DNA from: an uncultured Candidatus Saccharibacteria bacterium
Lineage (GTDB): Bacteria > Patescibacteriota > WWE3 > 2-01-FULL-39-13
NCBI GenBank assembly: GCA_965230915.1
Contig: OZ246395.1
Coordinates: forward strand, 858,431-922,430
Direction of reading: 5' to 3'
Length of the DNA: 64,000 nucleotides
A program made the position numbers and the translations under genes. The notes beneath the pieces were generated by a model that ran no database searches, was not told the DNA's origin, and was given only the letters and a program-made list of their open reading frames with translations. Below, one piece after another: positions 1 through 34,218 of this stretch; positions within the stretch are counted from its first letter, which is position 1; each line of letters opens with the position of its first letter.

Positions 1-3000
1 AGCAGGATCTGTAATACCAGTTATAGTTCTGGTTGCTTCTGCCCATACATCTGCTGCGGTTAATGTCGACCGACTTGAAACTGCAGCATCCAAGTTATCA
101 CAAACCCTCTTTCCGACAGACCCAGAGGTGTTTAATATCGAACATGCAGAATCCCAAATAGCAGATCTTGAAGCAGAGGTGAGTGCTACTTCACCAGTAA
201 TTGTCCTTGTTCCATATTCCCATACCTGCTGAGCTGTAATATCGTTTAATCCGTCGATATCTGCTTGTGTAGCAAGACTCCCGCTATCTAGATCAGCTGT
301 TGTTAGTGATCTTAATGCATAACTCCAGATATCAGCAGCTGAAGCGCCACCTCCGCCCCCGGTAGAAGACGATGTCGCGGCAAGAATAGCAAATCTGTTA
401 CCATTTGCAGGGGAAAAAGGCAGAGCAGGATCCAAAGTAATTGTTTTACTGGCTCCAGCATAATCAGAAATTCTTCTTACCACTCCCGTATTCTGACCCT
501 CGGTAAAAATTATTACCCCATCATTATAAAAATTGTCGGTAGCCGAAGTTAAATTTGTATTAAATGAAGTTGTTGTAGCAGATGGATCAGATACATTTGC
601 GTAATTTGCAACAAGCGAATCCTGTAATAACTGTCCGAAAGAGCCATCTGTATCGGCAAAATTCGAATATTGTGCAGCCCATACTCCTTCAGCTGTTAGA
701 CCTGTAGATAACCAAGGAGACACAGGCTGACCATCTGCATAAAAGTCGAGCGTTCCAGTATCAACTGACCCCGATAAAATAGATACATCATCTATATAAA
801 CATATGGCGGTTCATATATTACATAATCACCAACAGTGGTCGCTGCAAATGTAGTGCTTCTTAAAAATGGAACAACCGTACCTTTTAAATATAGGATTTG
901 GGATGTATTTCTTACAATATCAAATATTTTTCCATTAGAATCTTTTAATTTATAACCAACCCATTGATTCGGCGTCCAAGATTTATCAACATCTTCGAAC
1001 ATGGGGGGTAGATAGTTTCCGATAGGAAGAGCAATAACTTCGTTTGTTCCAGAGTCGCTGGCAACAAAATTATTTTTAACAGAAATTACTAACTCCGCTA
1101 AAGCCGATTCGGTCGGTGTTCCTGATACAACAAACTGCTGCCATGTACCGGGGTCGTCGCTGGCGGTCCATGTTAAATTATCACCTGTCATCCCAAGTCC
1201 TGATAGTGTAACTGTTGGCAAATTAGAAGAACCATACGCATCATTTACGTAAATATATCCTGTAACAGCGAGTGGCTTTGTTGCAACTCCAACGACTTTA
1301 GCAGTGTAATCCAAAGTAACATCAGCGCTTGTAGGTTCCATTCTCCAGCTATAACCGCCACTCGTTCTTACAGTTGTATCAGATAAGGATTGCCCCGTGG
1401 TTCGCATGTTTCCGAATGTTGTAAAGTTAACAATGTCTTTAGTATTAGTAGAATAAGTACCTCTAATATCAGTCCCGGGGATTGTTGTTCCAAAATAGTG
1501 CTCAGGTATGCGTGACATATTTGTATATCCAGCAGTACCAAATAGCACAGGGCTTAAAAACTGAGTACCAGAACCAGTAAATTGTGCCAACGATTCTGCC
1601 TCAAATGTTGCAGTATTCGGAGATGTATTTATATCTGATTCGTTCCATAATCCGCGACCAAACACGCTGCCGTCATCAGTAATTGCAATCGAAGATGCAG
1701 TCTGAGCAAAACGTATTCCGGACCCATATTCTGAACCGACTGTAACAACATCAGACGATGTGTGCCCGTCAAATACGTTATCTGACATATTAAAGAAAGA
1801 ATTCCCATACAATCTAATACCATAGTTATTTATAGAAAATATATTGTTCGATATAGTTACTTTCGCAACTCCAGAACTAAAGTTTAATGCCCCGCTCGTA
1901 CCGGAACCGGCAACCCCGTTATTGTAAAATTCGCTATTCGAAACAGTATATAGACGACCCGAAAAGAACGCAGCAGCACCATTAGCTGCAGCAGGAGGGA
2001 CTGTAACATAGGCATTACGATTTCCCATAAAAATACTTCCGTCGATTCCAACATTTTGCGATGTACTTGCATTGTATCCGCTACCTATATTCGCAGCGGC
2101 AAAGTTTGTAGTAACAAAGTATGCCCCGACATAATTAGTTCCTTCTGTTTTGCCTGAAACTGTATATGCGCGATCATAAAAGTTATAAAAGACGGAGTTA
2201 GAAACTCGTTGCGTTGGTTTTACAGCCGCTGAAGTATACGGATTTCCGACAATTGAGAAATTGCTGTATTGATTCTCCATAGACACATCCGAAAAATCTA
2301 GCGTGGCTAAACCTGAGAGGCCAACAGCTACAGGCCCAAAACCAAGCCCGGCATTAATAGGTGCACCGGTTGTCGCCCCTGTATAAGAGATATTTTCAGT
2401 CGACCATATATGTGTATTTCTCTTTAAATTCAGGACAGGCGAATAGGTCGGATTATCCTCCGACTCTCTTTTCGCTTTATGATGATATGTGAAATTATTT
2501 GACCAACCTGTAAGTGTGGCGAGCGCAGCATTTTCTAAAAATCCCGACCCAGATTTTATTCTTGCCGATGGAGTATATTTATCACCGGTATTATCGACCC
2601 ATACACGCGTTCTTTGAGGGTATGTAATTACACGAATCCGTTCGTTTCCGGTGTCAGCGCCATTTGTAAAAATTATTGAAGGATTACCAAAAGCATAGTC
2701 GGCCCATACCCATCCCTCGCGAGGGTTCATTGCAGAATCAAAACTCGCCCTAAATATATTTGTCCCCGCAACACCTGAACCCGAGCAAGTGACAGTCTCT
2801 CCGCCTGTCCATGCACTGGATGGTGGAGTAAACGAACCGTAATTACAGCCGGCAGAAGTATCGATATCATCATCAAATATTGCAAATTCATCGATGCTTC
2901 CATCAAACGCGGCATCATATGTATACCTGTTTCCGATAATAACTAACCCTGCATTAGCTCCTCTTGTTCCAACGGTCGAAGCTTGCCCAGTTGTAAATGG

Positions 3001-6000: not shown

Positions 6001-8484
6001 AGAAGCTGGCAAAGCCGCCCCCGGTTTACCGAATGCGACAGAAGCATTAGACTCTACGACAATTTTGCCCGGGATATTTATTCGATAATGTTTGTTGGCT
6101 GAATTATCTATTCCTAGCTGCGAACCGGGGGTAACTAACGCCGAAACCCATCCGCCGTTAGATGTATATGCCGCAAAGTCGGTTCGGCTACCCGCACCAT
6201 CGCCGACCGCACCTGATACATTGCCAGTATATATAAGACCTGCGTCCCAATTACGGTCAATCGTAACAACGTGGCTCTCTTTAGTCGCCCAATTTATATC
6301 ATTTGATAAATTCGAAGAATCATTAGTATCCGGATCGGATTTTCCATTACCAACAATAACCATATCTCCATCTGCGGGCGCAGTAGTATTGGCATCTCCA
6401 TATGCTACAAAGTAAATATGTCTATTAGATAAAAATGGATATCTCGTTGAAGAAGTTGCAACTGCCTCTGATTTGGCATAAGCAAGAACAACACTCGTAG
6501 TACGAGCCAACAAAGTTGAACCTGTAGGGTTTTGAGCGTGATTTATAGAGGTCCACTTTAAAACATTTCCGTTTGAAGGTGTCCCGGTATTAGAAAGGGT
6601 AACCGAAACTTCAGCTATTTTTGCCGATTGATCGGTAGTGTAAGTTCCGTTTCCAGGACTGCTGTTTAATGTTATTGGTTGACCGACACCACAAGAGCCG
6701 GAAAAACTTGAAATCGTTCTAGTTATTATTGGGGAGTTATTATCATAAATGGCTACAGTTCCGCCTGTTGCAAACTTTGTATTGTCCTCGACGCAAATTA
6801 CAGCCGTAGCATCTGTGTTTGCCTGAACAGTCTGATGTGCACCCTGAATTATTCTTTGCTTCCAAATTGATCTAGCCACGCTGGCATTTTTAGAAGTTGT
6901 ATAACCGGTAACCATTGCAGAAGTTGTAACAATGGCAGGGCCGTCCGAACAGCTCGCATGTGATGAAGTCACAGATGCAATAGTTCTTTGTATTGTAGCT
7001 GTATCTGAATCCCAAATATCAATATATTGATTAGCCGCAAAACCGGTAGTAGAAGCTACACAAATTACCGTTGTTGCGGTTGAATTAGCAGTAAGAGTAG
7101 TTAAAGTTGCCCCATCATCAACCCAAGAAGCACCTGTCGCACCGTCAGTAGCGGTTGTCAGTTTTCTTGCTTGAGTTCCTGATACCGAGCCTACAATGGT
7201 CCAATCGCTTGTGGCCGATGAATAGGTCGCGGTCCAGTGCTCATTTTCAGTCCTTCTTGCTGTAGGCAATCCAACTCCCGCGGAAGAATTAGCGACGACC
7301 ATTCCACCTAATAAAGATGCTGAACCGCCAAGCACACTATTTGAAGTCAACGCAGGCGGCATATTCATAGTAGAGGCACTTGTAGCATCAATATCAATTA
7401 CGCCGAGTGTTCTAACAGTTCCATTTACCGAAGCAAAACCATTAGACTGAGGCGATTCGCCCCATACTCCAAGAGCAGTCGTCGCCGGAGCAGTCGCTCC
7501 CATATTTATAATGCGTATTCCATAATGCTTAGTCGTCGAAACGCCCGGATCAACAGCCAAAGGCGGATCAAATCTAAAATCTAGAGTTGCTCTACCAAAA
7601 TTACCCGGCTGGGAATTTTCGCCAGATGTAGCCTGATTAAATTGCCATACAGTTCTTCTTTCGACAACAGTATCCGAAGGGTAAGTATAAGCACCCTGTG
7701 TGCCTGTTACATAATTCGAACACGATGAAGTACAGCTCGCGGATGGAAACCTTAGAAGCTCAACCACAATATCGCTGTTTGAAAGCGAAGTCGATGTAAT
7801 GTTTTCCATGATTATCTGAACACCGGCTATATTGCCGTCATCTGAAGGCGTAAAACCAATAAATTGTGCCGCCGCATAAGTTGCTGTCGCCGCCATAGGA
7901 ACGTATCCGACTGCCAAGCCTCCGGCAGAACCATCGGTCGTACCACCCGGGTGAATTGGGTTAAAGGTTCCCGATTCGGCATCACCGTTAACACCATCGC
8001 CCGAATATGCCATCGCTGTATACCAGTCACCATCAGTAGATAGGGTCGTACTTTGCTTTGATATTTTAACCGCACCTGTAAACGTCGCCGCAAAAGGCTT
8101 TGGCGCAAATAATTTTGACGATACAAATATAAAAATTGCAACAAAAGCTGGAGCTAAAAATACAATCGCCAAGACAAGAGGTAAATGCCTTCGGACATAC
8201 AAAACAATCTTTGCCGGAGTTAGATTTTTTATATCTCTATAAAAATTTTTAATGAGTTTTTTGTAATCGGTAGTTCTGAAAGTTCTGTATAAATTTTTAG
8301 AAAATATAATTATTTCCTTCTTCGAAAACCTGACATTCTTGATTTTTTTAATAAGGAAAATGATTGATGGAATTATTCCCGAAGTCTTTTCTTTTATAGT
8401 TTTAGGTAAGTTCGCTAATAAGGTCTGCCACACAACCATCTTTCGACGGTAAACTGACTTTCGCCTGGGCAGATTAGTTCGCAT
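1..8484 (-). CDS. Giant cell-surface protein, partial (start at 8484, continues past window start; >2820 codons in window). N-terminal TM anchor, parallel beta-helix-like repeats, LamG/concanavalin-like motif, repeated ~65-aa T/S-rich modules
   Basis: Manual translation of the minus strand from ATG (rc of cat at 8482-8484) stays open to position 1 with protein-like composition. The ORF track shows no >=60-aa ORF in this frame and only short ORFs in the other frames, as expected if one frame runs off the edge. TM helix LVLAIVFLAPAFVAIFIFV near the N-terminus; ISNNIFSINNYGIRLYGNSFFNMSDNVF is a PbH1-like beta-helix repeat; GSIDEFAIFDDDID is a LamG-like motif. Confidence 0.85.
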   Translation of the reverse strand, partial: MRTNLPRRKSVYRRKMVVWQTLLANLPKTIKEKTSGIIPSIIFLIKKIKNVRFSKKEIIIFSKNLYRTFRTTDYKKLIKNFYRDIKNLTPAKIVLYVRRHLPLVLAIVFLAPAFVAIFIFVSSKLFAPKPFAATFTGAVKISKQSTTLSTDGDWYTAMAYSGDGVNGDAESGTFNPIHPGGTTDGSAGGLAVGYVPMAATATYAAAQFIGFTPSDDGNIAGVQIIMENITSTSLSNSDIVVELLRFPSASCTSSCSNYVTGTQGAYTYPSDTVVERRTVWQFNQATSGENSQPGNFGRATLDFRFDPPLAVDPGVSTTKHYGIRIINMGATAPATTALGVWGESPQSNGFASVNGTVRTLGVIDIDATSASTMNMPPALTSNSVLGGSASLLGGMVVANSSAGVGLPTARRTENEHWTATYSSATSDWTIVGSVSGTQARKLTTATDGATGASWVDDGATLTTLTANSTATTVICVASTTGFAANQYIDIWDSDTATIQRTIASVTSSHASCSDGPAIVTTSAMVTGYTTSKNASVARSIWKQRIIQGAHQTVQANTDATAVICVEDNTKFATGGTVAIYDNNSPIITRTISSFSGSCGVGQPITLNSSPGNGTYTTDQSAKIAEVSVTLSNTGTPSNGNVLKWTSINHAQNPTGSTLLARTTSVVLAYAKSEAVATSSTRYPFLSNRHIYFVAYGDANTTAPADGDMVIVGNGKSDPDTNDSSNLSNDINWATKESHVVTIDRNWDAGLIYTGNVSGAVGDGAGSRTDFAAYTSNGGWVSALVTPGSQLGIDNSANKHYRINIPGKIVVESNASVAFGKPGAALPASSYSDIHFDNVSPAASTTLTVDSAASTTLTVTSTTGFAVGDTIILDDNNSVAITRVIAAIQSGTSITLTAAAVTGYTTAQGAYIAKGITTELPTGSDRRAGVFTMTGIIAASTQTNFRTGRVSLYADGSSDFRTSKSDLAVDIDGNIDTGYLGNNLTDAGNTWVDVEDNVVGNWQPTDEIAVGGGTNLPPDNNISTLEMGSVDDAAQMPLWTGGVTAGGKNDLPAPNMEVSEIGTVPLTNIYNANYNGGSVSYSSNYANSTAWTIFGDSANSEVNDAVYFADQGNSMFYSLEFNIGTLMSASASYVWEFWNGSNWISFTPRDSYIYQPRTDYSMPLSADITRNSYTITIPEGGANFGLDQIVMIDDDDSSPIYRRLGTTAPTATVLTFAEPLPSGYTTAQNARVSRLNGGHWVSVDPTSVFSSNTGRKILSWTPSNLTGTPAKTTINSVNAYWVRARISSFSSWTTSPANQTTPIGMSGIERLSSGAIAVSSGVQEAKLSEVTPGASYDPNETWTLEYGNSPGWIETQKYTSAQALPSAPYIWHIDSGTLNVNATNVQHLVLHNGSLTGTDYTISALVKMDMVADATSRRVGVMMRQNLDGNGYAALITKTNAANTIGWYTTLAGVPTLIGSATTKAFSEDTWYCLKAQVSGTTLNAKFWATSDCSSGEPGSWDETETNATYTAGRFGLYTGSATASQGMKALFDTVSTDTGFSDTFTDTGTWNVVGSTQGSIGTATPGTPFTSSYINFTLKHKGGRNGVTPPEIGDKIYLSSTGIRSYKGLDSAVGITTSNGDTKYELWDFEWDPTQSKYTVTGSATGSSGTATPGTTYTSPDDEISLRIPSGSPTATKFGDRMLLLQDNYLRNNGSWTGVNGIGSAVLVYPTYAITSSSIATRYNIEGQSGTASARQNGTIDFWFKANYSGSPSNPKGAYLVDYANLGDTNRLFIRHTPDGYLEAAIYAAAAQGTLLRQSFSPTAGQWYHFRLAWDETANAKRAWLDGTPFTTGQASTVGTRGANAGLVIIGNRYTYDAAFDGSIDEFAIFDDDIDTSAGCNYGSFTPPSSAWTGGETVTCSGSGVAGTNIFRASFDSAMNPREGWVWADYAFGNPSIIFTNGADTGNERIRVITYPQRTRVWVDNTGDKYTPSARIKSGSGFLENAALATLTGWSNNFTYHHKAKRESEDNPTYSPVLNLKRNTHIWSTENISYTGATTGAPINAGLGFGPVAVGLSGLATLDFSDVSMENQYSNFSIVGNPYTSAAVKPTQRVSNSVFYNFYDRAYTVSGKTEGTNYVGAYFVTTNFAAANIGSGYNASTSQNVGIDGSIFMGNRNAYVTVPPAAANGAAAFFSGRLYTVSNSEFYNNGVAGSGTSGALNFSSGVAKVTISNNIFSINNYGIRLYGNSFFNMSDNVFDGHTSSDVVTVGSEYGSGIRFAQTASSIAITDDGSVFGRGLWNESDINTSPNTATFEAESLAQFTGSGTQFLSPVLFGTAGYTNMSRIPEHYFGTTIPGTDIRGTYSTNTKDIVNFTTFGNMRTTGQSLSDTTVRTSGGYSWRMEPTSADVTLDYTAKVVGVATKPLAVTGYIYVNDAYGSSNLPTVTLSGLGMTGDNLTWTASDDPGTWQQFVVSGTPTESALAELVISVKNNFVASDSGTNEVIALPIGNYLPPMFEDVDKSWTPNQWVGYKLKDSNGKIFDIVRNTSQILYLKGTVVPFLRSTTFAATTVGDYVIYEPPYVYIDDVSILSGSVDTGTLDFYADGQPVSPWLSTGLTAEGVWAAQYSNFADTDGSFGQLLQDSLVANYANVSDPSATTTSFNTNLTSATDNFYNDGVIIFTEGQNTGVVRRISDYAGASKTITLDPALPFSPANGNRFAILAATSSSTGGGGGASAADIWSYALRSLTTADLDSGSLATQADIDGLNDITAQQVWEYGTRTITGEVALTSASRSAIWDSACSILNTSGSVGKRVCDNLDAAVSSRSTLTAADVWAEATRTITGITDPA

Positions 8485-8525
8485 ATTTTTTGTTGTATTG
8501 CAGGCTTCTTTCTATATTTAACACA

Positions 8526-8553
8526 ATAAAAGAGTTTGGTGGAACTCTTTTAA
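8526..8553 (-). terminator. Rho-independent terminator-like hairpin between the receiver gene and the giant gene
   Basis: AAAAGAGTT-TGGTGG-AACTCTTTT stem-loop. The minus-sense RNA is followed by UUUUAUUGUGUU. Confidence 0.5.
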
Positions 8554-8847
8554 TATATATAAGTTAGACTTAGAAAACAGCCAAATTTAACCTAGAATAG
8601 GTTTTCTCCTGTTAAATATTATCACGTTTAATATCGATTTTGTTGCCTTTTATTACTCTGAAATTTATTGTAACTTGGTGTTTTTTTATCAAATAATTCT
8701 AGTCGGAAACATAGCAAACTGGAGACCAGACCTAATCAATAAAAATATTGGCCACAATAGCTGCCGCGACTTGGACGTAATAAGAATTATGATAACTCGA
8801 TTAATATGAGCTCTCCATAAAAGTGAGACTATGCAGCCCTCACTGTC

Positions 8848-16100: not shown

Positions 16101-16787
16101 ATTTACACAACAAAAGATGAAGATTTAGAAACCGGGGATATAGTTTCAATTGACCCTGACTTATCGACAGGTGTAATGAAAAGCTCCAAACCTTACGATA
16201 AAAGTGTTATTGGAATAGTCTCCACAAGTCCCGGAGTCGTAATCGGTTCAGTACAAAAAGAAGGCGTCAAAGCCATGCCTATTGCTTTAAGTGGACGCGT
16301 ACCGACCAAAGTGTCGACAGAAAACGGATCAATATACCCAGGAGACTACCTTACAACTTCATCTATTCCCGGTGTCGCTATGAAATCTACGAAAGCTGGT
16401 CCGATTATTGGAACCGCAATAAATTCATTCGATGACGATAAAGTTGGAAAAATTTTAGTCTTTGTTAAAAATGGATCTTCAAATATAGATTCGGGCGAGA
16501 ATGAATTTGTTAATTCCTTCGGAAAAACCACAGTTAAATCAGGTGAGTCCGAAGCTCAGATTGATTTCTCTGACGAATACAAAAAACAATTAGCAGATAC
16601 AAAAGTAAGTCCATTCATAAATATAAGCCCGAGTCTGAATGATGAAGATGAAATTGAGGACTTACCTCAATATGCCGTATTCGACATCTCTAAAGAAGGT
16701 TTTAAAATAAAAATTTCTAAGACAACAGGGTTTGATATTGATTTTTCGTGGGTCGCTGTTTCACCAAATTCCAAAAACCATGAGTGA
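13122..16787 (+). CDS. 1221-aa membrane-anchored protein: N-terminal MerR-type HTH, single TM, large S/T/N/G-rich extracellular region with a tandem ~135-aa repeat and a conserved C-terminal domain
   Basis: AEQTAKLLGITTDKLSILERQGILHPLKTANGNIQY matches the MerR HTH pattern. TM segment SLYVAGSFIAVYILLVIIFIISF. Internal tandem duplication ~14170-14990. Upstream palindrome GTTACataacaGTAAC at 13091-13106. Confidence 0.8.
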   Translation: MDYFSAEQTAKLLGITTDKLSILERQGILHPLKTANGNIQYPKSDIVQIKSHNRHSISEEAELMGSVIQKDLVKSTSLMKKSLYVAGSFIAVYILLVIIFIISFSSNPIQTAKWLGIIRNSEATSTLALNSNGGNVLGASTIENEKDSVVQTILQPVGKVSLKLVKNIKPDAYAEVSEVTILDPNDVLKLNTDGNMVPEKPIDIADSSLLKVRESDLVENLNSQYVQGRQPGTNPGDLAIVGDNSQEVAAPIIVQDNTLAEKISELTNDNFSGNAAISNSNLANSSITINTSGPISGGDTIALGGAIDIDCPTCITDDSDFVTEGSTNTFINKSINATDNTITGLNSINLEAGDYSSKITSGTYSINITGTVDTAINFSGQLLGDVTGTQTATSVEKIKGQSLGNVLPTSGNILIGNGSEWNSELLSGDATIDASGVITLKNTGTAGIFGSSNSIPIITTDAQGRVLSASTTLITGLGPSSLSSGDYSSVINSGIYNIDISGNASTATSATSANTATTANSATNFTGNLLGDVTGTQSSTIVEKINGENLGIVTPTSGNLLIGSGTEWVTKSLSGDATVNSSGLVSLVNTGTAGTYGSSSEIPVIITDSKGRVTGVANTSIANLSVSNFISQNISQWTNDSSFITNSSINNLTNKTISGITNTLSDISNSSLSNSSITFAGNVGSGNISLGSTINILGGGINSTSYSSGTLTITGTEADTLSSVTGRGSSTNNTLTLNGGINTTTTTNLNLDTGTTGSILIGTGFNSKNIGVGNTFGSTSLNLFSGTGNINLVAGPTSSSEKVQIGNSASATPDILVLDNGTADPSGINGAMYYNTATNKFRCYQNGWTNCISNVGADIQNAVSYDTSQDLTNIGSAQVTVTSVTVTPTTATGDVYVRAKAEILSSNGTDQTLVLSIEDNATCTGSTLTSNPITITSASGTVIGDFELSAVEVDAGTSPQSYSLCASTATGDTDIRLYQMFATVIDTGSDLAEIYTTKDEDLETGDIVSIDPDLSTGVMKSSKPYDKSVIGIVSTSPGVVIGSVQKEGVKAMPIALSGRVPTKVSTENGSIYPGDYLTTSSIPGVAMKSTKAGPIIGTAINSFDDDKVGKILVFVKNGSSNIDSGENEFVNSFGKTTVKSGESEAQIDFSDEYKKQLADTKVSPFINISPSLNDEDEIEDLPQYAVFDISKEGFKIKISKTTGFDIDFSWVAVSPNSKNHE
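14170..14990 (+). repeat. In-frame tandem duplication (~135 aa x2) inside the 1221-aa gene
   Basis: SGDYSSKITSGTYSINITG...GDVTGTQTATSVEKIKGQSLGNV...TGTAGIFGSSNSIPIITTDAQGRV repeats as SGDYSSVINSGIYNIDISG...GDVTGTQSSTIVEKINGENLGIV...TGTAGTYGSSSEIPVIITDSKGRV. Confidence 0.8.
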
Positions 16788-17865
16788 GAATAATTTTTAT
16801 GATGATGGCCCGGACTTCGGCCCAGATTCACTTGTAAATGAAATAAATTCTTTGGCACATAAATATTATCCCGCCGAAAACCCAAGCGAAATTCCTGAAA
16901 ATAACTTCACTCATCTGACTAGAAATATATACATTCAAGCCGGAGTTCCAGTCTTGGCTTTAACTTACTTAATGTTATTTAGCAATTCGCAAAACACGAG
17001 TGCTCAAAGCACTGTTGAAATTCATGTGGAACCCTCAACAATTGCGAATGCTGCGTGCTATCCGGATGAACTAGAATTCCAAATTACAAATGTAAATGAA
17101 GATAATGCTCCCGGAACAATTTGGGTCAGCTGGAACGACGAAACTTTACAAATTGAAATCTTTGCAGTAGATCAAAACGGTACTGCAATATATCACGTTA
17201 CTGATCCCGACTTGCTCGATGGAATATTGGAAGACTCATGGACAGAAATATTTGCACAATGGATAGGACAATTTGTAGTCAAAGGGTGTGCCACTCCAAC
17301 ACCAACATTCACTGCAACCTCAACGGAAACTCCAACACAAACCTATACAGCTACGGCAACTGAAACATCTACCGAGATGGCTACTTCGACTTCCACGTCT
17401 ACATCTACAGCAACGGCTACTTCGACCTCGACCCCAACTTTTACTGAGACACCTAACCCAACAGCGACAGCAACAGATACGTCAACAGCGACCCAAACTC
17501 CTAGCCCAAGTACAACATCAACTCCCAGCACAACCTCAACGCCAATTCCAAGCTCGACTTCTACATCAACGGAGACTCCAACTGTAACTTCTACAAATAC
17601 ACCAAATGCTACGACAACAGAAACTCCAACTCAAACCTTTACCAGTACTCCATCACCGACACAAACACGCACCAATACCCCTACTAATACTCCTGTTGAA
17701 TTGGTAGAAACTAACACTCCTACTTTTACGCCAGATCCATCGCCTACAGCCCCAACCCATACTGGCTCCCCCACACCAACAGATATAACGCCAAAACCTA
17801 CGGCGACAATAGAACCGACAGCTACGAAACCTAAAATATATGCCCCTGAAATCGAAAAAAACTAG
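16780..17865 (+). CDS. Secreted/surface protein with a long Thr/Pro/Ser-rich mucin-like C-terminal linker (start placed at the ATG overlapping the upstream stop in ATGAGTGA)
   Basis: Hydrophobic N-terminal segment VPVLALTYLMLF; ~170-aa TPT/TST low-complexity tract (17290-17800). The track start at 16732 overlaps the upstream gene, and the internal ATG at 16780 gives a 4-8-nt overlap typical of coupled genes. Confidence 0.65.
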   Translation: MSENNFYDDGPDFGPDSLVNEINSLAHKYYPAENPSEIPENNFTHLTRNIYIQAGVPVLALTYLMLFSNSQNTSAQSTVEIHVEPSTIANAACYPDELEFQITNVNEDNAPGTIWVSWNDETLQIEIFAVDQNGTAIYHVTDPDLLDGILEDSWTEIFAQWIGQFVVKGCATPTPTFTATSTETPTQTYTATATETSTEMATSTSTSTSTATATSTSTPTFTETPNPTATATDTSTATQTPSPSTTSTPSTTSTPIPSSTSTSTETPTVTSTNTPNATTTETPTQTFTSTPSPTQTRTNTPTNTPVELVETNTPTFTPDPSPTAPTHTGSPTPTDITPKPTATIEPTATKPKIYAPEIEKN

Positions 17866-17942
17866 TTGAGGGAGAAAAGGTAGTTAATAACGCTTGATAA
17901 AGGATACTGGTTAAAGTGGTTAATCTGTGAAAATTATATGTC

Positions 17943-17982
17943 TCCGCGGGCTGGACGTTATCAGAACTGAGGTTTTAGAATT
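17943..17982. repeat. att-like direct repeat, copy 1: the 14-nt 3' end of tRNA-Asn (TCCGCGGGCTGGAC) plus 26 nt identical to copy 2. Left boundary of the tRNA-Asn island
   Basis: 40/40 identity with 18645-18684. The first 14-15 nt equal the 3' acceptor/T-arm end of the tRNA at 19228-19302. Confidence 0.85.
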
Positions 17983-17984
17983 TA

Positions 17985-18046
17985 TTGAAGTTGTTTCGAC
18001 TTGACCTTCCCAAATCTCATCAGACACTAAGTGTAACAACTTGCAA
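17985..18046 (-). ncRNA. Type III hammerhead ribozyme (HHR-1), immediately 3' of gene 18131..18532
   Basis: Minus-sense 5'-UUGCAAGUUGUU^ACAC-UUA-GUGU-CUGAUGA-GAUUUG-GGAAGGU-CAAGUC-GAAA-CAACUUCAA. Conserved CUGAUGA and GAAA cores. Stem I is 4 bp with a triloop, stem II 6 bp with loop GGAAGGU, stem III 7 bp including A15.1:U16.1. Cleavage triplet GUU. Two paralogs covary. Confidence 0.85.
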
Positions 18047-18130
18047 GAATAAAGTATGACTGAGATTTCGGTATTTGAAACCGATTGAAGTGTAGCGCTA
18101 GGCTAAACTCTATTAATCTCAAGCAATACT

Positions 18131-18532
18131 CTACCCTTGCCTCTTGTGTGCTACTTTAAACTTGACCATACCGGCGCTCGTCATGAGCATCCATGATCCT
18201 GGGATAAACTGCACCCAGCCGTCGATCTCAATCTCATCGCCACCATTCCCTCGGTAAACCGAAGCTATTATGTTCAGGACTTTATCCCTGAACTCATCAG
18301 CAACAGTTTCCACAACCTCGCCAGGATTCGTCTGAATCTCGACATACAAATGTGCCGCATCTGGATCCACACTCAAAATCTCTAATCCAAACGCATTCAC
18401 GATTATATCGTCACTTGGCAAGCCATAATCCGTACCCGCCATAACCTTTACTTCACGGCGAATTTTATCTGTGGAATCAATCAAAAATGTCTTAACTCCA
18501 AGATCCATAGCTAACAGTTTAATCAGTGGCAT
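18131..18532 (-). CDS. Hypothetical 133-aa protein, GC-richer cassette gene P1
   Basis: Own promoter (TTTAAA-17-TATAAT) and SD AAGGAG 9 nt before the ATG; followed by HHR-1. No recognisable domain. Confidence 0.7.
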   Translation of the reverse strand: MPLIKLLAMDLGVKTFLIDSTDKIRREVKVMAGTDYGLPSDDIIVNAFGLEILSVDPDAAHLYVEIQTNPGEVVETVADEFRDKVLNIIASVYRGNGGDEIEIDGWVQFIPGSWMLMTSAGMVKFKVAHKRQG

Positions 18533-18585
18533 GGCTTTCGACTCCTTTTGCCATTTCTAAAACATACCTATTCGGAATTAATAGG

Positions 18586-18623
18586 ATTGTGCATGATTAT
18601 ACTATAAATACAGGTCGATTTAA
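18586..18623 (-). promoter_or_regulatory. Sigma70-type promoter of cassette P1 (TTTAAA-17-TATAAT) with upstream CCCATAGTATTT motif
   Basis: rc of 18586-18591 is TATAAT, rc of 18609-18614 is TTTAAA, spacer 17. Motif CCCCATAGTATTT directly upstream, next to the att repeat. Confidence 0.6.
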
Positions 18624-18644
18624 ATACTATGGGGCATAAATGGG

Positions 18645-18684
18645 TCCGCGGGCTGGACGTTATCAGAACTGAGGTTTTAGAATT
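18645..18684. repeat. att-like direct repeat, copy 2 (identical 40 nt), separating cassettes P1 and P2
   Basis: TCCGCGGGCTGGACGTTATCAGAACTGAGGTTTTAGAATT is identical to 17943-17982, 703 bp away. Confidence 0.85.
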
Positions 18685-18694
18685 AGTTAATTGG

Positions 18695-18760
18695 AAATAA
18701 AAAAACCGCCTCATGATTTTGATTGTCGTAATGACTTTCGCGTCATAAAGCGGGTTAATC
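18695..18760 (-). terminator. Terminator-like structured region 3' of cassette gene P2 (nested hairpins, then UUUUUUUAUUU), where P1 has a hammerhead instead
   Basis: Minus-sense CCGCUUUAUGACGCGAAAGUCAUUACGAC...CAUGAGGCGGUUUUUUUAUUU; the inner AUGAC-GCGAAA-GUCAU hairpin sits inside a longer imperfect stem. Confidence 0.4.
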
Positions 18761-18785
18761 TAAACAGGTTAAGGGTTAGATTCCC

Positions 18786-19139
18786 TTACTTGAGGAGCTT
18801 TAGCTCAGATAGAGGGGGATATGCTGATCCCCAAAAGAAATACTTATCCGAAAATCCAGAACCACTCAATAGTAAGTAGCTAACCGAGGCCATAGGTGTC
18901 GAAGTAAATCGATATTGGTTCCTATCAATTTCCGTCAAGCCAACTCGCCCGTTTCCCCAGACCATAACGCCTGCTAACAGCTGAGGTAAGTATGTTTTCC
19001 GATGTTCTCCTAAATAGGAGTACACTGGGAACATCATTTGGATCAACTCTTCATCCGAGTTGCTAAATACAGGAATCCGCCCCTCTGCTAGAGTCTTTGC
19101 CCAACCACTTACGATAGCATTTAAATCGTCGGTGATCAT
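18786..19139 (-). CDS. Hypothetical 117-aa protein, cassette gene P2, first gene after tRNA-Asn
   Basis: ORF directly downstream of a consensus promoter abutting the tRNA; visibly higher G+C than flanks; no recognisable domain. Confidence 0.65.
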   Translation of the reverse strand: MITDDLNAIVSGWAKTLAEGRIPVFSNSDEELIQMMFPVYSYLGEHRKTYLPQLLAGVMVWGNGRVGLTEIDRNQYRFTSTPMASVSYLLLSGSGFSDKYFFWGSAYPPLSELKLLK

Positions 19140-19186
19140 TATGTCCTCTTTCTTTGTGGATGAACCTTCTAATGAGAATTTGTGAG

Positions 19187-19215
19187 ATTTTAACAGTTTA
19201 CGACAAGCCTGTCAA
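19187..19215 (-). promoter_or_regulatory. Consensus sigma70 promoter (TTGACA-17-TAAAAT) immediately 3' of tRNA-Asn, reading into P2
   Basis: rc of 19210-19215 is TTGACA, rc of 19187-19192 is TAAAAT, spacer 17. Preceded by CCTATAGTG. Confidence 0.65.
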
Positions 19216-19227
19216 CACTATAGGATA

Positions 19228-19302
19228 CGTGGCTCCGCGGGCTGGACTCGAACCAGCAACCTCGAAGTTAACAGCTTCTTGCTCCACCATTGAGCTACCG
19301 CG
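19228..19302 (-). tRNA. tRNA-Asn (anticodon GTT), CCA encoded
   Basis: rc gives TCCGCGG-TA-GCTC-AATGGTG-GAGC-A-AGAAG-CTGTTAA-CTTCG-AGGTT-GCTGG-TTCGAGT-CCAGC-CCGCGGA-G-CCA, a cloverleaf with 7-bp acceptor stem, U33 and anticodon GUU. Confidence 0.9.
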
Positions 19303-19319
19303 GAATATTGGTGCTGCAG

Positions 19320-31881: not shown

Positions 31882-31894
31882 TGGTGCACCCAAG
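31882..31894. repeat. att-like direct repeat: 13-nt copy of the tRNA-Arg 3' end (TGGTGCACCCAAG); left boundary of the tRNA-Arg island
   Basis: Identical to 34142-34154 (the 3' end of the tRNA at 34142-34218). Confidence 0.7.
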
Positions 31895-31944
31895 TGATGT
31901 TAATTGGAATCGGGTTTTTGAATTTATATTGAAATTTTAGGAAA

Positions 31945-31998
31945 GTAGTTTCGACTTGATCTTCCCAAGTCTCATCAGGGACTATGTCCGACTAGAAC
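31945..31998 (-). ncRNA. Type III hammerhead ribozyme (HHR-2), 3' of gene 32105..32845
   Basis: Minus-sense 5'-GUUCUAGUC^GGAC-AUA-GUCC-CUGAUGA-GACUUG-GGAAGAU-CAAGUC-GAAA-CUACU. Canonical GUC cleavage triplet. Stem I and II covary with HHR-1 and HHR-3. Confidence 0.85.
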
Positions 31999-32104
31999 AC
32001 CGGAAAGAGAGGTTGAAGAAAAAATTGCAACGATTACTCGCGCAGCTTCAACATCTTCCGATGTTCGGTTGATCTACAAAATTCAAAATGAAATTCGCCG
32101 AAAA

Positions 32105-32845
32105 CTAGGCAGACTTCTCAATCCTCTTGAGTGCCAAAGCCTTCTGGCCAAATGGATTGACTTCCAACTGCTCATTATACTTGGGCAAGGCGTTTATTAG
32201 AGGCAAATGCTGATCCTCCATATATCCAAGCCCTATAAAACGATCCGCCAAAGCCTCATCGCGAAGATACATTCCCCGAGAATGAATCGCCTGCCTAAAC
32301 AGGGCAATATCATCATGACTGAGAGCTTCAACATCTGAATTCTCGAGGAGAAATCCCCACTTTTTAGCGAAACCTTGAAGGCCTTTTGCATCCATAGACG
32401 AAATCGCCTGATGTGAGTATTTAACTCTTAGGCCGGCCACGAAATCAGCGAATGGCATGTACCAAAACTCTTCAGTTCGTAAACGAACTTCTTCTGGTTC
32501 CCATTCATAACCTGTGGCAAAAATACCTAGAGCCACAACTCGATCATTCAGTTCTTCAGTCCACCCGCGGTGGCGGATAGTTTCGCGAAGATAAGGCGTG
32601 TCCTCGATCCCCGAAATATCTTCCTCCGTCACATCAAAGAGCCAACCCTGCAGGTACTGCAATAGGCTGACCTCCGTTGTTCCGAACATCATTAATCCGG
32701 TCAGCCCACCATTGGCAGAGTGCGCCTTGTTCGTTGGCCGAGCAGGTATACTGGGAACTGCTTCCTGTGCGACTTGCTCTTCGACCTTTGAAAAAGGAAA
32801 CAAATTAACAACAAACGATACGAAGGTGTTGATAATGTTTTGCAT
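32105..32845 (-). CDS. Hypothetical 246-aa protein, GC-rich cassette gene P3
   Basis: SD AGGAGA 10 nt before the ATG; followed by HHR-2. Confidence 0.7.
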   Translation of the reverse strand: MQNIINTFVSFVVNLFPFSKVEEQVAQEAVPSIPARPTNKAHSANGGLTGLMMFGTTEVSLLQYLQGWLFDVTEEDISGIEDTPYLRETIRHRGWTEELNDRVVALGIFATGYEWEPEEVRLRTEEFWYMPFADFVAGLRVKYSHQAISSMDAKGLQGFAKKWGFLLENSDVEALSHDDIALFRQAIHSRGMYLRDEALADRFIGLGYMEDQHLPLINALPKYNEQLEVNPFGQKALALKRIEKSA

Positions 32846-32881
32846 GGTAGAAGTTTCTCCTGCTTACTGAAAGTTTTTATA

Positions 32882-32925
32882 TTGCTCGAAGTAACTTTCG
32901 ATTACTCAAAAACTAATTCGAGCAA
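32882..32925. repeat. Inverted repeat TTGCTCGAA-(26 nt)-TTCGAGCAA between cassettes P4 and P3
   Basis: Perfect 9-bp arms read directly; lies between HHR-3 and the P3 start. Confidence 0.45.
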
Positions 32926-32953
32926 TATATTTGTAGATCAATTTTTAATGTAC

Positions 32954-33010
32954 AAAACTGTTTTCGATCTGAGCTTCCCAGATCTCATCAGGCGCTATGC
33001 GCGAACAGCG
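32954..33010 (-). ncRNA. Type III hammerhead ribozyme (HHR-3), ~270 nt 3' of gene 33281..33838
   Basis: Minus-sense 5'-CGCUGUUC^GCGC-AUA-GCGC-CUGAUGA-GAUCUG-GGAAGCU-CAGAUC-GAAA-ACAGUUUU. Stem I GCGC/GCGC and stem II GAUCUG/CAGAUC; both covary against the paralogs. Confidence 0.85.
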
Positions 33011-33280
33011 GGCAAAAGTGAAGCGGAAAGCAAAAGATTAGATAATGATCGAAATGATCATCAAATTCTCATGCTTTAAAAACATGCTTCACTGCCCGTC
33101 TGGCAAACTTTGAAACGAATCCAATGTAGAATTCCCTGAGCTAGTATTTGACACTTTAAGCTATTCCTAGGTAAGTATCTTTCGATCTTACACACTATCA
33201 ATAGCGCCGTACCTTGCGGTCTTGGCAGTCTTGAGCTTTTCATCGGGCTCGTGTTGGATTTACAAACTTCTTACTACCAC

Positions 33281-33838
33281 CTACTTGGGTTCGTATATCC
33301 ACTCGATGTGGTCGAATACGAATGGGCGCGGCGCTTCAACAGAGACGATGGCTTTTAGGCCAGCCTCTTCGATTTTCGCCTTTGGATTGGCGAAGGAGAT
33401 GATCTCCTGCAAAGCGCTTTCCCTCGTCCCATCACGGCCTTCCTGGTGATACCAGACAGGAATTTCCTTCGTCTGAGGACCACTCGGCATAGCCGAAGGA
33501 ACAGAAACCACGACACCCATCCGCGGAAGCGGAACTAGATCTCTCGCGAAATCAGCGGAGGTAAAACCTTCCCATGGAAGTCGTACTAAATCCTTCACAC
33601 CTTCCTGCCAAACCACTACTTTCAGTAGTGCCGATGCCAACGGCGCCGGTACATTCTGAAACAACAAAACTGCATCCTTCTCGACAGCCTTTTTTGCCAA
33701 ATCCAAAAGGACTGGCTTTGTCTCCTCGCCCGTTGCGGGGAAGGTGACATTGATGGTTTCGACAACCTCAACTTGGAGTGTGCCGAAGTCTGGGGCGTGC
33801 CGACCAATAACAATAGCGCGAATCGTTGCATTTTGCAT
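33281..33838 (-). CDS. Hypothetical 185-aa protein, GC-rich cassette gene P4
   Basis: RBS GAAAGGG; ~250-nt leader from a consensus promoter next to tRNA-Arg; followed by HHR-3. Confidence 0.7.
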   Translation of the reverse strand: MQNATIRAIVIGRHAPDFGTLQVEVVETINVTFPATGEETKPVLLDLAKKAVEKDAVLLFQNVPAPLASALLKVVVWQEGVKDLVRLPWEGFTSADFARDLVPLPRMGVVVSVPSAMPSGPQTKEIPVWYHQEGRDGTRESALQEIISFANPKAKIEEAGLKAIVSVEAPRPFVFDHIEWIYEPK

Positions 33839-34095
33839 GGTGCTTTCAACCCTTTCAAGATTGAAACTTACATCAGTTTCTAAGCTCCCATTGGAGTTAG
33901 CTTCAGATCACCTGAAGAAACAACCTACGTTTTTCCATCGTAAGCTGATTCCTCAGGCAATCTTCAATTAGTTTGCCAAATTTTTAATGTACTTTTTGAG
34001 ACTTTTTGTGGGGTATAGCCTTTAGGGCCTTGCCGTTAAAAAAGCTCAGAAATCAATGGACTTTTTGATATCCGAACCTTTCAACTTAATGGCTA

Positions 34096-34124
34096 CATTA
34101 TATTACGAAAAGGCTAGCCTGTCA
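34096..34124 (-). promoter_or_regulatory. Perfect consensus sigma70 promoter (TTGACA-17-TATAAT) immediately 3' of tRNA-Arg, reading into the island
   Basis: rc of 34119-34124 is TTGACA, rc of 34096-34101 is TATAAT; preceded by CCTATAGTA. Confidence 0.7.
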
Positions 34125-34141
34125 ATACTATAGGCTAGTGT

Positions 34142-34218
34142 GGTGCACCCAAGAGGATTCGAACCTCTGGCCTCAACTTCCGCAAAGTTGCGCTCTATCC
34201 AGCTGAGCTATGGGTGCT
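34142..34218 (-). tRNA. tRNA-Arg (anticodon GCG), CCA encoded
   Basis: rc gives GCACCCA-TA-GCTC-AGCTGGATA-GAGC-G-CAACT-TTGCGGA-AGTTG-AGGCC-AGAGG-TTCGAAT-CCTCT-TGGGTGC-A-CCA. Arg-type D and T arms; anticodon loop UUGCGGA. Confidence 0.85.

Follow-up and report, generated by a model that had tools for sequence, protein, structure and literature searches.

What placed two unrelated small genes, each with its own promoter, between the 3′ end of a tRNA-Asn gene and a partial copy of that same end, and which enzyme could have been responsible? The question is raised by a 1.29-kb segment on the minus strand of a 64,000-nucleotide stretch of contig OZ246395.1 (hereafter, the window), which belongs to an ~0.95-Mb genome of the Patescibacteria (candidate phyla radiation, CPR). 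The mobile DNA of the CPR has barely been charted, and gene gain in its tiny genomes is hard to explain. Comparisons with related loci indicate that the segment probably consists of two distinct miniature integrative elements arranged in tandem at the tRNA-Asn 3′ end, both devoid of a large serine recombinase (LSR) gene. A preliminary description had interpreted the locus as the outcome of site-specific integration at the tRNA 3′ end. That reading is supported by equivalent repeats in relatives, by an LSR-bearing element with the same site (contig L060), and by a sister island behind tRNA-Arg in the same window.

Two unrelated cassettes behind tRNA-Asn

Read in the direction of the tRNA, which the preliminary description had recognized but placed 2 nt off (19302 to 19228), the locus consists of the tRNA, cassette 2, a 40-nt repeat, cassette 1, and a second copy of the repeat (Table 1). 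Each repeat is made up of a 26-nt arm and a 14-nt core, GTCCAGCCCGCGGA, which is also the 3′ part of tRNA-Asn (19247 to 19234). This identity had been noticed before, with the core taken for the first 14 nt of the repeat, whereas it forms the last 14 nt in the tRNA direction. Identity between repeat and tRNA stops before the GCCA end, and three of the next four bases still match. The two repeats are 100% identical, as had been claimed, and their spacing is 702 nt (not 703 bp). Within the 64 kb, the 14-mer has exactly three occurrences, one in the tRNA and one in each repeat, and the non-tRNA arm has exactly two; neither turned up in 100 shuffles.

Both ORFs (open reading frames) described earlier, P2 in cassette 2 and P1 in cassette 1, are present, and the promoters assigned to them proved to be the two best sigma-70 matches of the region. 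The terminator-like structure proposed after P2 corresponds to a long hairpin followed by a U-run, the stability of which was equaled by 0 of 200 shuffled controls upon folding; a simple terminator scan leaves it uncalled because its loop exceeds 8 nt. Downstream of P1, a stable hairpin in the 3′ untranslated region (UTR) is followed by HHR-1, whose earlier assignment as a hammerhead ribozyme could be refined to a canonical type III fold, with a 4-bp stem I closed by a UUA loop and a 6-bp stem II closed by a GGAAGGU loop. Cleavage is predicted after U18035. Three forms of junction are discernible, i.e., tRNA::CCTATAGT where cassette 2 begins, arm-core::CCCATAGT between the two cassettes, and arm-core::flank at the distal end.

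A blastn comparison of the two cassettes found only the 40-nt repeat in common, their ORFs, promoters, and 3′ signals being unrelated, which argues for two insertions and not for a duplication. Of the two histories offered in the preliminary description, successive insertion thus stands, whereas a local tandem duplication of one cassette with subsequent divergence, which would account for a pair of identical repeats at this spacing, is refuted by that comparison and retains practically no likelihood. The remark that the cassettes are GC richer than their surroundings rests on a weak difference (42.0% in the island versus 37.8% in the window, with 44 to 45% in the ORFs), as 19% of equal-sized windows match or exceed the island. 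The foreign look argued from GC content and Escherichia coli-like promoters is weak as well: the promoters are real, but their type is native here. Past the distal repeat, where host-like AT-rich DNA had been reported, a spacer of 77 nt leads to the 3′ end of a Thr/Pro-rich gene that is convergent and has 44 to 48% GC. Exact look-up of P2 retrieved one 1.1-kb Logan contig only, which is identical to the window, ends in the repeat, and is uninformative on excision; no contig matched P1.

Table 1. Features of the tRNA-Asn and tRNA-Arg islands in window coordinates, all on the minus strand and listed in the direction of the tRNAs
Feature	Position	Basis and remarks
tRNA-Asn(GTT)	19304..19230	ARAGORN; Rfam RF00005, 64.3 bits; intact, CCA encoded
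Cassette 2 left end	19229..19187	CGTAT-CCTATAGT, running into the promoter
Cassette 2 promoter	19215..19187	TTGACA-17-TAAAAT; 11/12 matches, TG-extended
P2	19139..18786	117 aa; AGAGG Shine-Dalgarno; orphan ORF
Cassette 2 terminator	18762..18691	Long hairpin, then U7; -25.4 kcal/mol, z = -3.55
Repeat copy 2 (middle junction)	18684..18645	40 nt; 26-nt arm AATTCTAAAACCTCAGTTCTGATAAC + 14-nt tRNA core
Cassette 1 left end	18644..18596	CCCATTTATGCCCCATAGT, then the promoter
Cassette 1 promoter	18624..18596	TTTAAA-17-TATAAT; 10/12 matches
P1	18532..18131	133 aa; AAGGAG Shine-Dalgarno; predicted tautomerase-superfamily fold
Cassette 1 3′ UTR hairpin	18135..18045	P1 stop to hammerhead; -26.9 kcal/mol, z = -5.14
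HHR-1	18043..17986	Type III hammerhead; separated from the distal repeat by 3 nt
Repeat copy 1 (distal, attR-type junction)	17982..17943	40 nt; arm + core as in copy 2
Sister island behind tRNA-Arg(GCG)	34217..31882	Two hammerheads, homologous arm, 13-nt tRNA-Arg 3′ repeat
tRNA-Arg(GCG)	34217..34141	ARAGORN
tRNA-Arg island left end and promoter	after tRNA-Arg	CCTATAGTATTGACAGGCT; similarity to the Asn left end
ORF185	33838..33281	tRNA-Arg island cargo
HHR-a	33011..32954	Descriptor scan, model R1
ORF246	32845..32105	tRNA-Arg island cargo
HHR-b	31998..31941	Descriptor scan, model R1
tRNA-Arg 3′ copy, 13 nt	31894..31882	CTTGGGTGCACCA, after the homologous arm

The repeat arm and a serine recombinase gene

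A metagenome scan with an arm/core 17-mer yielded 44 matches, only ~5 of which are similar beyond the 17-mer, the rest being chance. The nature of the repeats is best seen in L060, a 7,594-nt metagenome contig in which perfect 90-nt direct repeats (1-90 and 7353-7442) flank 7.35 kb. These repeats contain CCTCAGTTCTGATAAC-GTCCAACCCGCGGAGCCA, and the arm and core of the window are identical to them at 34 of 36 nt. The first gene of L060 abuts the first repeat and encodes a 515-aa LSR with Resolvase (2e-34), Recombinase (2e-16), and Zn_ribbon_recom (5e-7) domains. Over 92% of its length, this enzyme shares ~25% identity with phage serine integrases. A 69-aa MerR/HTH_17 gene comes next. The last 19 LSR codons run antisense through core and arm (...GDKWLRGLDVIRTEVEKFVQVG, then the stop codon). 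The site bears perfect 9-bp inverted repeats, GTTCTGATA and TATCAGAAC, which lie 29 nt apart and are centered on GCGGAG. CGGAG(CC), the shortest block that all junctions have in common, falls on this center, and the crossover would probably lie within CGGAG.

The antisense strand of the arms reads the LSR C terminus with no frameshift (LRGLDVIRTEV... in the window). The tails preceding the stop codon are WLRGLDVIRTEVEKFVQVG in L060, LRGLDVIRTEVLEFIEVVST in the distal repeat of the window (with the stop codon inside HHR-1), WVRGLDVIRTEVLELVNWK in the middle repeat, DVNWNRVFEFILKF in the arm of the tRNA-Arg island, and WLRDLDVIRTEVVEFIKVVST and WLRGLDVIRTEVMRFTEIVST in the related genomes L021 and L018, respectively. 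At the middle junction, CCATTTATGCCCCATAGT corresponds to CCATTTATCCCCTATCAG of L060, so that the antisense codons read GHKW versus GDKW. The left end of cassette 2, in turn, aligns with the recombinase-side site of L060, GCCATTTATCCCCTATCAG (alignment A4). Together, the antisense LSR tail and the left-end alignment identify the repeats as the putative P arm and core of a serine-recombinase attP and the cassette left ends as putatively truncated P′ half-sites fused to a promoter. Judged from these alignments, the repeat arm is a relic of the recombinase gene's 3′ end, and what remains of the other half-site is the left-end motif CCYATAGT; CGTAT-CCTATAGT in cassette 2 and CCCATTTATGCCCCATAGT in cassette 1 would both be P′ relics, and the tRNA-Asn/cassette 2 boundary an attL-type junction (tRNA::P′). 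The recombinase involved was most likely an LSR rather than a classic tRNA-targeting tyrosine integrase.

In agreement with the preliminary description, the window has no integrase or recombinase: none was detected among the scanned ORFs of at least 110 aa (Pfam), which are housekeeping or unknown (sigma-70, DnaG, MetRS, AlaRS, RmuC, RecF-like, RuvX, and glycosyltransferases, among others), and tblastn with the L060 enzyme matched L060 only. Among the ORFs scanned in the window and L060, none matched Phage_integrase, and the viral contigs held no relative of the L060 recombinase. The suggestion that a trans-acting enzyme would be needed gains support from L060, where a recombinase lies between the arm-core copies, and we infer mobility in trans by an L060-type LSR.

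Comparison of related tRNA-Asn loci, as suggested in the preliminary description, revealed different cargo behind the tRNA. Three relatives, L013, L018, and L021, keep VIT1 beside tRNA-Asn (VIT1 71%, 68%, and 58% identical, respectively); the flanking VIT1 homologues are named Woesebacteria, Microgenomates, or Patescibacteria. In all three, the cargo is unrelated to that of the window, and the genes called beside the tRNA have no recorded Pfam family. In L021, a promoter and a Zn-ribbon ORF of 95 aa precede a hammerhead (8057-8114) whose core has changed from CUGAUGA to UCGAAGA, and the arm and GTCCAAATCGCGGAGCCA come next; between the further small ORFs downstream lie GCGGAGCC and CGGAGCCA remnants with CGGAGCC(A) junctions, and TACTAT-CCTATAGT comes after one of these remnants. 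L018 carries a 1.2-kb insert with two opposite-strand genes, a hammerhead from which stem II is deleted (~560-600), and the arm CCTCAGTTCTGATAAC, followed by 18 nt that exactly repeat the 3′ end of the L018 tRNA. L013 has no arm; its tRNA is followed by CCCATAGTGTTGAC-N17-TATAAT, an unrelated 244-aa ORF, and a degenerate tRNA 3′ copy. Across L018, L021, and the window, the comparison reveals variable cargo between conserved arm and core ends. Synteny is lost in the more distant VIT1 relatives L069 and L071.

The tRNA-Arg(GCG) island of the window provides an equivalent arrangement at a different tRNA. Its left end, CCTATAGTATTGACAGGCT, is the same at all but one position as CCTATAGTGTTGACAGGCT after tRNA-Asn, and 19 of 21 positions are identical over the two left ends. 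Its arm is locally similar to the Asn arm (score of 35, versus a shuffle mean of 20.3 with a standard deviation of 3.8), and the target::P′ and P::target-flank junction forms recur. Because the tRNA copies differ and the ends are shared, the duplicated core seems to follow the resident tRNA, with element ends being common. A decayed att junction (arm/core relic) was looked for after HHR-a in this island and not found.

Other observations were made at these loci. The tRNA-Asn(GTT) of L013 (~1440..1150) was missed by ARAGORN because a group I intron (1192-1413, minus strand; RF00028, 60.6 bits, above gathering) splits its anticodon loop, and an HNH-like 106-aa ORF lies between VIT1 and this tRNA. 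In the tRNA-Arg island, an exact 14-nt repeat, GTACATTAAAAATT (33979-33992 and 32940-32953), brackets ORF185 and HHR-a; its second copy starts 8 nt past HHR-a and may be the mark of a nested cassette or chance in AT-rich DNA. Three metagenome contigs, L027 (175-191), L044 (7492-7508), and L046 (927-943), contain (CT)CAGTTCTGATAACGTCCACG followed by different sequence (e.g., ...ATACTCCGCAAG); a promoter comes directly after it in L027 and L044, and L044 has a tRNA-Ser 3.4 kb upstream on the same strand. These copies may be arm relics with other cores.

Hammerheads, origin of the array, and known systems

A descriptor scan of the window found three near-identical hammerheads, all on the minus strand (HHR-1, HHR-a, and HHR-b). 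An exact-pattern scan of one genome per species retrieved 12 further copies in 11 loci, nine of which are labeled Saccharibacteria/Saccharimonadia; the others are metagenome-assembled genomes, one each labeled Patescibacteria group, candidate division WWE3, and Pseudomonadales (L006). In the alignment of the 15 hammerheads (A1), the catalytic core and both loops are invariant, and all three stems covary: 92.9% of cells are paired, versus 31 to 38% with slid partners, there are 64 double-change cells versus 21 in shuffles, 11 of 17 pairs change on both sides, and 0 of 500 shuffles reached the covariation score. A covariance model built from this family (R1) recovers all 15 copies at 66 to 81 bits (73.8 for HHR-1) and finds no fourth hammerhead in the window. 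Rfam reported no ribozyme, either at the gathering threshold in the window or at an E of ≤10 over 1.6 kb; on a 111-nt slice, RF00008 matched HHR-1 with 27.3 bits (E = 2.4e-4), below its gathering score of 48.5. The family shares with type III hammerheads of RF00008 the CUGAUGA and GAAA motifs, A15.1-U16.1, U as H17, and three covarying helices with an open stem III; unlike RF00008, it has a 4-bp stem I with a NUA triloop and a conserved GGAAGNU loop II and adjoins a recombination site. Taken together, the covariation and core motifs identify a real type III hammerhead family, and self-cleavage is predicted at the Asn locus.

Other Patescibacteria loci also have promoter-ORF units terminated by a hammerhead. 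In L002 and L006, the left end, CTATAGTATTGACA, is that of the window cassettes, and left-end motif and hammerhead recur with unrelated cargo in other genomes. The segment between hammerhead and core has no stable fold (z = +1.45). In viral contigs, the hammerhead and arm patterns gave nothing, or one chance match. L007 (1480-2860) has two small membrane-protein ORFs with their own promoters, each ending in a hammerhead, 713 bp apart; 50 nt past the second hammerhead, GCGCCCGGGCACCA|TAACT resembles a tRNA 3′ end, and there is no tRNA in this 8-kb locus.

We propose that both mini-elements descend from LSR-encoding integrative elements and are probably still handled in trans by that family, in which attP would overlap the 3′ end of the LSR gene and include a tRNA-like core. 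A mini-element would begin with what is left of the P′ half-site (GCCA-N5-8-CCYATAGT), joined to a strong sigma-70 promoter. It would then contain a single cargo ORF (P1 in cassette 1 and P2 in cassette 2), a 3′-end signal (type III hammerhead and intrinsic terminator, respectively), and a right end composed of the P arm (CCTCAGTTCTGATAAC plus upstream bases) and the tRNA-like core. The three junctions would then be attL-like (tRNA::P′), attP-like in the middle (P::core::P′), and attR-like (P::core::host flank). The predicted hammerhead cut lies 96 nt past the P1 stop and would leave a hairpin-protected P1 mRNA uncoupled from read-through across the att site, as the terminator would do for cassette 2; we infer a role of the ribozyme in mRNA 3′-end formation. 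The moving enzyme could be an LSR encoded elsewhere in the genome or on an incoming element, and such a putative helper would end in ...WLRGLDVIRTEV....

Several findings weigh against this origin. L060 is the single LSR-bearing example, and its contig starts inside the repeat, so that no tRNA is visible there. While the P arm and the inner bases on the P′ side are preserved at the window junctions, the outer inverted-repeat motif of P′ is missing, and the mini-cassettes may be poor or dead substrates. The distal core corresponds to the local tRNA variant in the window and L018 but not in L021, which renders the crossover point ambiguous. Most hammerhead loci in other genomes have neither a tRNA nor an LSR-tail relic, and the hammerheads of L021 and L018 have decayed while arm and core persist, so the junction does not depend on the hammerhead. 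We observed neither alternative junctions nor circles or empty sites. To our knowledge, canonical LSRs recombine only attP with attB, and reactions between attP and attL would be noncanonical from what is generally known of serine integrases. Relaxed site choice has been reported for Ccr recombinases; stacking at the tRNA would need such a less strict enzyme or homologous recombination through the repeats.

The missing outer P′ motif and the noncanonical attP × attL reaction would suit fossil scars, i.e., immobile leftovers of full-length LSR elements from which a deletion removed the recombinase and whose cargo is now replaced only by homologous recombination or transformation, with the tRNA and the hammerhead-arm-core stretch as anchors. 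Also in keeping with scars are the decay of hammerheads and cores in L021, L018, and L013 and the position of the module at the same syntenic locus in relatives, which could be vertical descent. We nevertheless regard them as an improbable explanation, considering that the two 40-nt repeats are still 100% identical, that the arm reading frames are intact in four genomes, and that two tRNAs of one genome have a common left end (19/21) and a homologous arm with a core matched to each tRNA; moreover, the recurrence of left-end motif and hammerhead with unrelated cargo suggests a propagating lineage, not independent decay. It is very unlikely that the repeats are attL and attR of elements moved by a phage-type tyrosine integrase encoded elsewhere in the genome, even though direct repeats of a tRNA 3′ end (here 14 nt at Asn, twice, and 13 nt at Arg) are the textbook signature of such enzymes and the tycheposon preprint reports tyrosine recombinases for 910 of 937 tRNA-island elements (bioRxiv 10.1101/2020.12.28.424599). 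The only autonomous element found with arm and core encodes an LSR, the stop region of which is the arm, and the scanned or called genes of the window, L021, L018, L013, and L060 include no tyrosine recombinase.

Less credible still is an RNA-level device in which the hammerhead and the tRNA-like 3′ segment act as RNA, either as a unit-length or circular molecule resembling retrozymes or viroids or as a tRNA-mimic tag, with repeats that would serve this purpose and not recombination. It would explain why hammerhead loops I and II are conserved, why cassette 1 is without a terminator, and why two hammerheads bracket ORF246, delimiting a 1,013-nt unit with predicted 5′-OH and 2′,3′-cyclic phosphate ends. 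It is at odds with the missing fold between hammerhead and core, with a core that varies with the resident tRNA, with an arm that is recombinase coding sequence on the other strand, with cassette 2, which carries the repeat even though its 3′ signal is a terminator and not a ribozyme, and with L021 and L018, where the repeat persists though the hammerhead is dead or deleted. Two further candidates were ruled out: a tRNA-like end serving as primer-binding site or tRNA mimic, given that arm and unfolded segment, and a transposase-made target-site duplication of fixed length, given a block of 13 nt at Arg and 14 to 18 nt at Asn with different start positions in the tRNAs.

LSR-derived mini-elements handled in trans, the origin we favor, could be part of something larger, namely, an integron-like system of the Patescibacteria built on an LSR instead of IntI, in which tRNA 3′ ends dock, stack, and shuffle self-promoted single-gene cassettes. 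The hammerhead would be a functional part of the cassette that processes run-around transcripts of excised 0.6- to 1-kb circles, or read-through transcripts of arrays, to unit-length mRNAs, and it would lie antisense to the recombinase 3′ end. This extension is speculative, and we doubt it more than we believe it. If true, bacterial hammerheads would gain a defined role in the life cycle of mobile cassettes. Likewise, should an L060-type enzyme, by means of an attP located within the gene that encodes it, recognize the 3′ ends of tRNAs, it would stand out among serine integrases as one whose target is defined and conserved.

Several known systems share traits with the array. Composite staphylococcal cassette chromosome (SCCmec/psiSCC) arrays sit at the 3′ end of rlmH (orfX) and are moved by the large serine recombinases CcrAB/CcrC. 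They resemble the array in the serine recombinase, tandem stacking at a conserved gene 3′ end, target-end direct repeats, and recombinase-less units; here, however, the target is a tRNA, the units are 0.6 to 2.3 kb and carry a single gene, or two in the case of the Arg island, the host belongs to the CPR, the putative attP overlaps the recombinase stop codon, a hammerhead lies in the right end, and the window has no helper. Cis-mobilizable elements (CIMEs) are derivatives of integrative and conjugative elements (ICEs), e.g., ICESt1/CIME of Streptococcus thermophilus. The likeness lies in non-autonomous, att-flanked units without recombination genes that are thought to be mobilized in trans and occur in tandem with, or derive from, autonomous elements; by the 34/36-nt and antisense protein matches to L060, the window units appear att-flanked and recombinase-less in the same way as CIME/psiSCC types. 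Unlike the window units, CIMEs use tyrosine integrases and are many kilobases long, and we know of no ribozyme or cassette-like single-gene architecture described for them. An attP inside the int gene is found in temperate phages such as Mx8 (intP), which parallels the crossover site in the 3′ coding end of the recombinase and an integration that alters the enzyme's C terminus. Mx8 IntP is a tyrosine enzyme, whereas the L060 type is an LSR whose displaced tail would survive as the arm of recombinase-less cassettes.

Like integron cassettes, the units are small, mostly of single ORFs, with unrelated cargo arranged head to tail, bounded by sites, and presumably served by a recombinase in trans. 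They differ in that there is no IntI, attI, or attC hairpin, no inverted repeat spans the junctions, and every cassette has its own promoter, a tRNA anchor, and a site apparently derived from a serine-recombinase attP. Compared with LSR integrative elements proper, the window units encode no LSR, so they would be at most non-autonomous derivatives. In contrast to retrozymes and viroid-like RNAs, a single hammerhead is present in the Asn island, no reverse transcriptase turned up, and the repeats read as DNA att relics. Tycheposons, the tRNA islands of Prochlorococcus, arise by repeated integrations at one tRNA that push older elements outward, leave partial tRNA copies and degenerate remnants behind, involve large serine recombinases in a minority, and reside in streamlined hosts (bioRxiv 10.1101/2020.12.28.424599). 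Tycheposons carry an integrase and often replication modules; the window units carry neither and have a conserved promoter-ORF-ribozyme-arm layout, in Patescibacteria. Tandem degenerate tRNA insertions (tycheposons) and recombinase-less units in serine-recombinase arrays (SCC/psiSCC) are thus known already. Targeted full-text literature searches did not find a description of 0.6- to 2.3-kb self-promoted cassettes with a hammerhead against a recombinase-3′-end relic and tRNA docking in Patescibacteria. The locus would represent a compact, repeatable addition of single genes at tRNA 3′ ends, with their own promoter and 3′-end signal and no recombinase. It also ties a poorly detected hammerhead class to a precise position, directly against a putative serine-recombinase attachment arm. 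The function of bacterial ribozymes and their clustering with mobile genes are a long-standing question, which is testable here with short synthetic constructs.

Cargo proteins and neighboring sequences

P1 and P2 had no Pfam or PHROG match and returned self matches only in a word-indexed protein search. P1 has 25 distant homologues of ~130 aa, and its Pro2 is nearly invariant in 23 sequences (alignment A2). The AlphaFold2 (AF2) model of P1 (pLDDT of 94.2) consists of two beta-alpha-beta units, and the top Foldseek matches are 4-OT, the cis-CaaD-like Cg10062, MIF, and CHMI (probability of 1.00, E of ~3e-5); on the strength of this model, P1 is a tautomerase-superfamily fold protein. The homologues in L073 and L016 are not beside tRNAs or hammerheads, and the P1 alignment is too divergent to find further loci. 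P2 matched only itself among 5.8 billion clusters, and its single-sequence AF2 model (pLDDT of 41) is unusable; with no family and no confident fold, it is to be considered an orphan.

The P1 homologue of L016 (39% identical) is located in an array of small promoter-ORF units (1300-3200) behind CCCATAGCATTGAC, without a hammerhead. Two features recur at the ends of these units, a long hairpin (CTAGCGGCTTAGCTATCT...AGATAGCTAAGCC) and a terminator (CACACTACTyTTCGCAGGTTTTTTTATTTTAAT). Other P1 homologues were not found in such cassette-like arrays.

In the window, the convergent gene flanking the Asn island (16732-17865, plus strand) encodes a Thr/Pro-rich protein of degenerate 12-nt-phased repeats (families D1 and D2); it has a strong negative GC skew and no Pfam match. 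At the start of the window (1-8800), no complete ORF of at least 110 aa is listed before 8848, which suggests that a single, very large gene extends beyond the window start.

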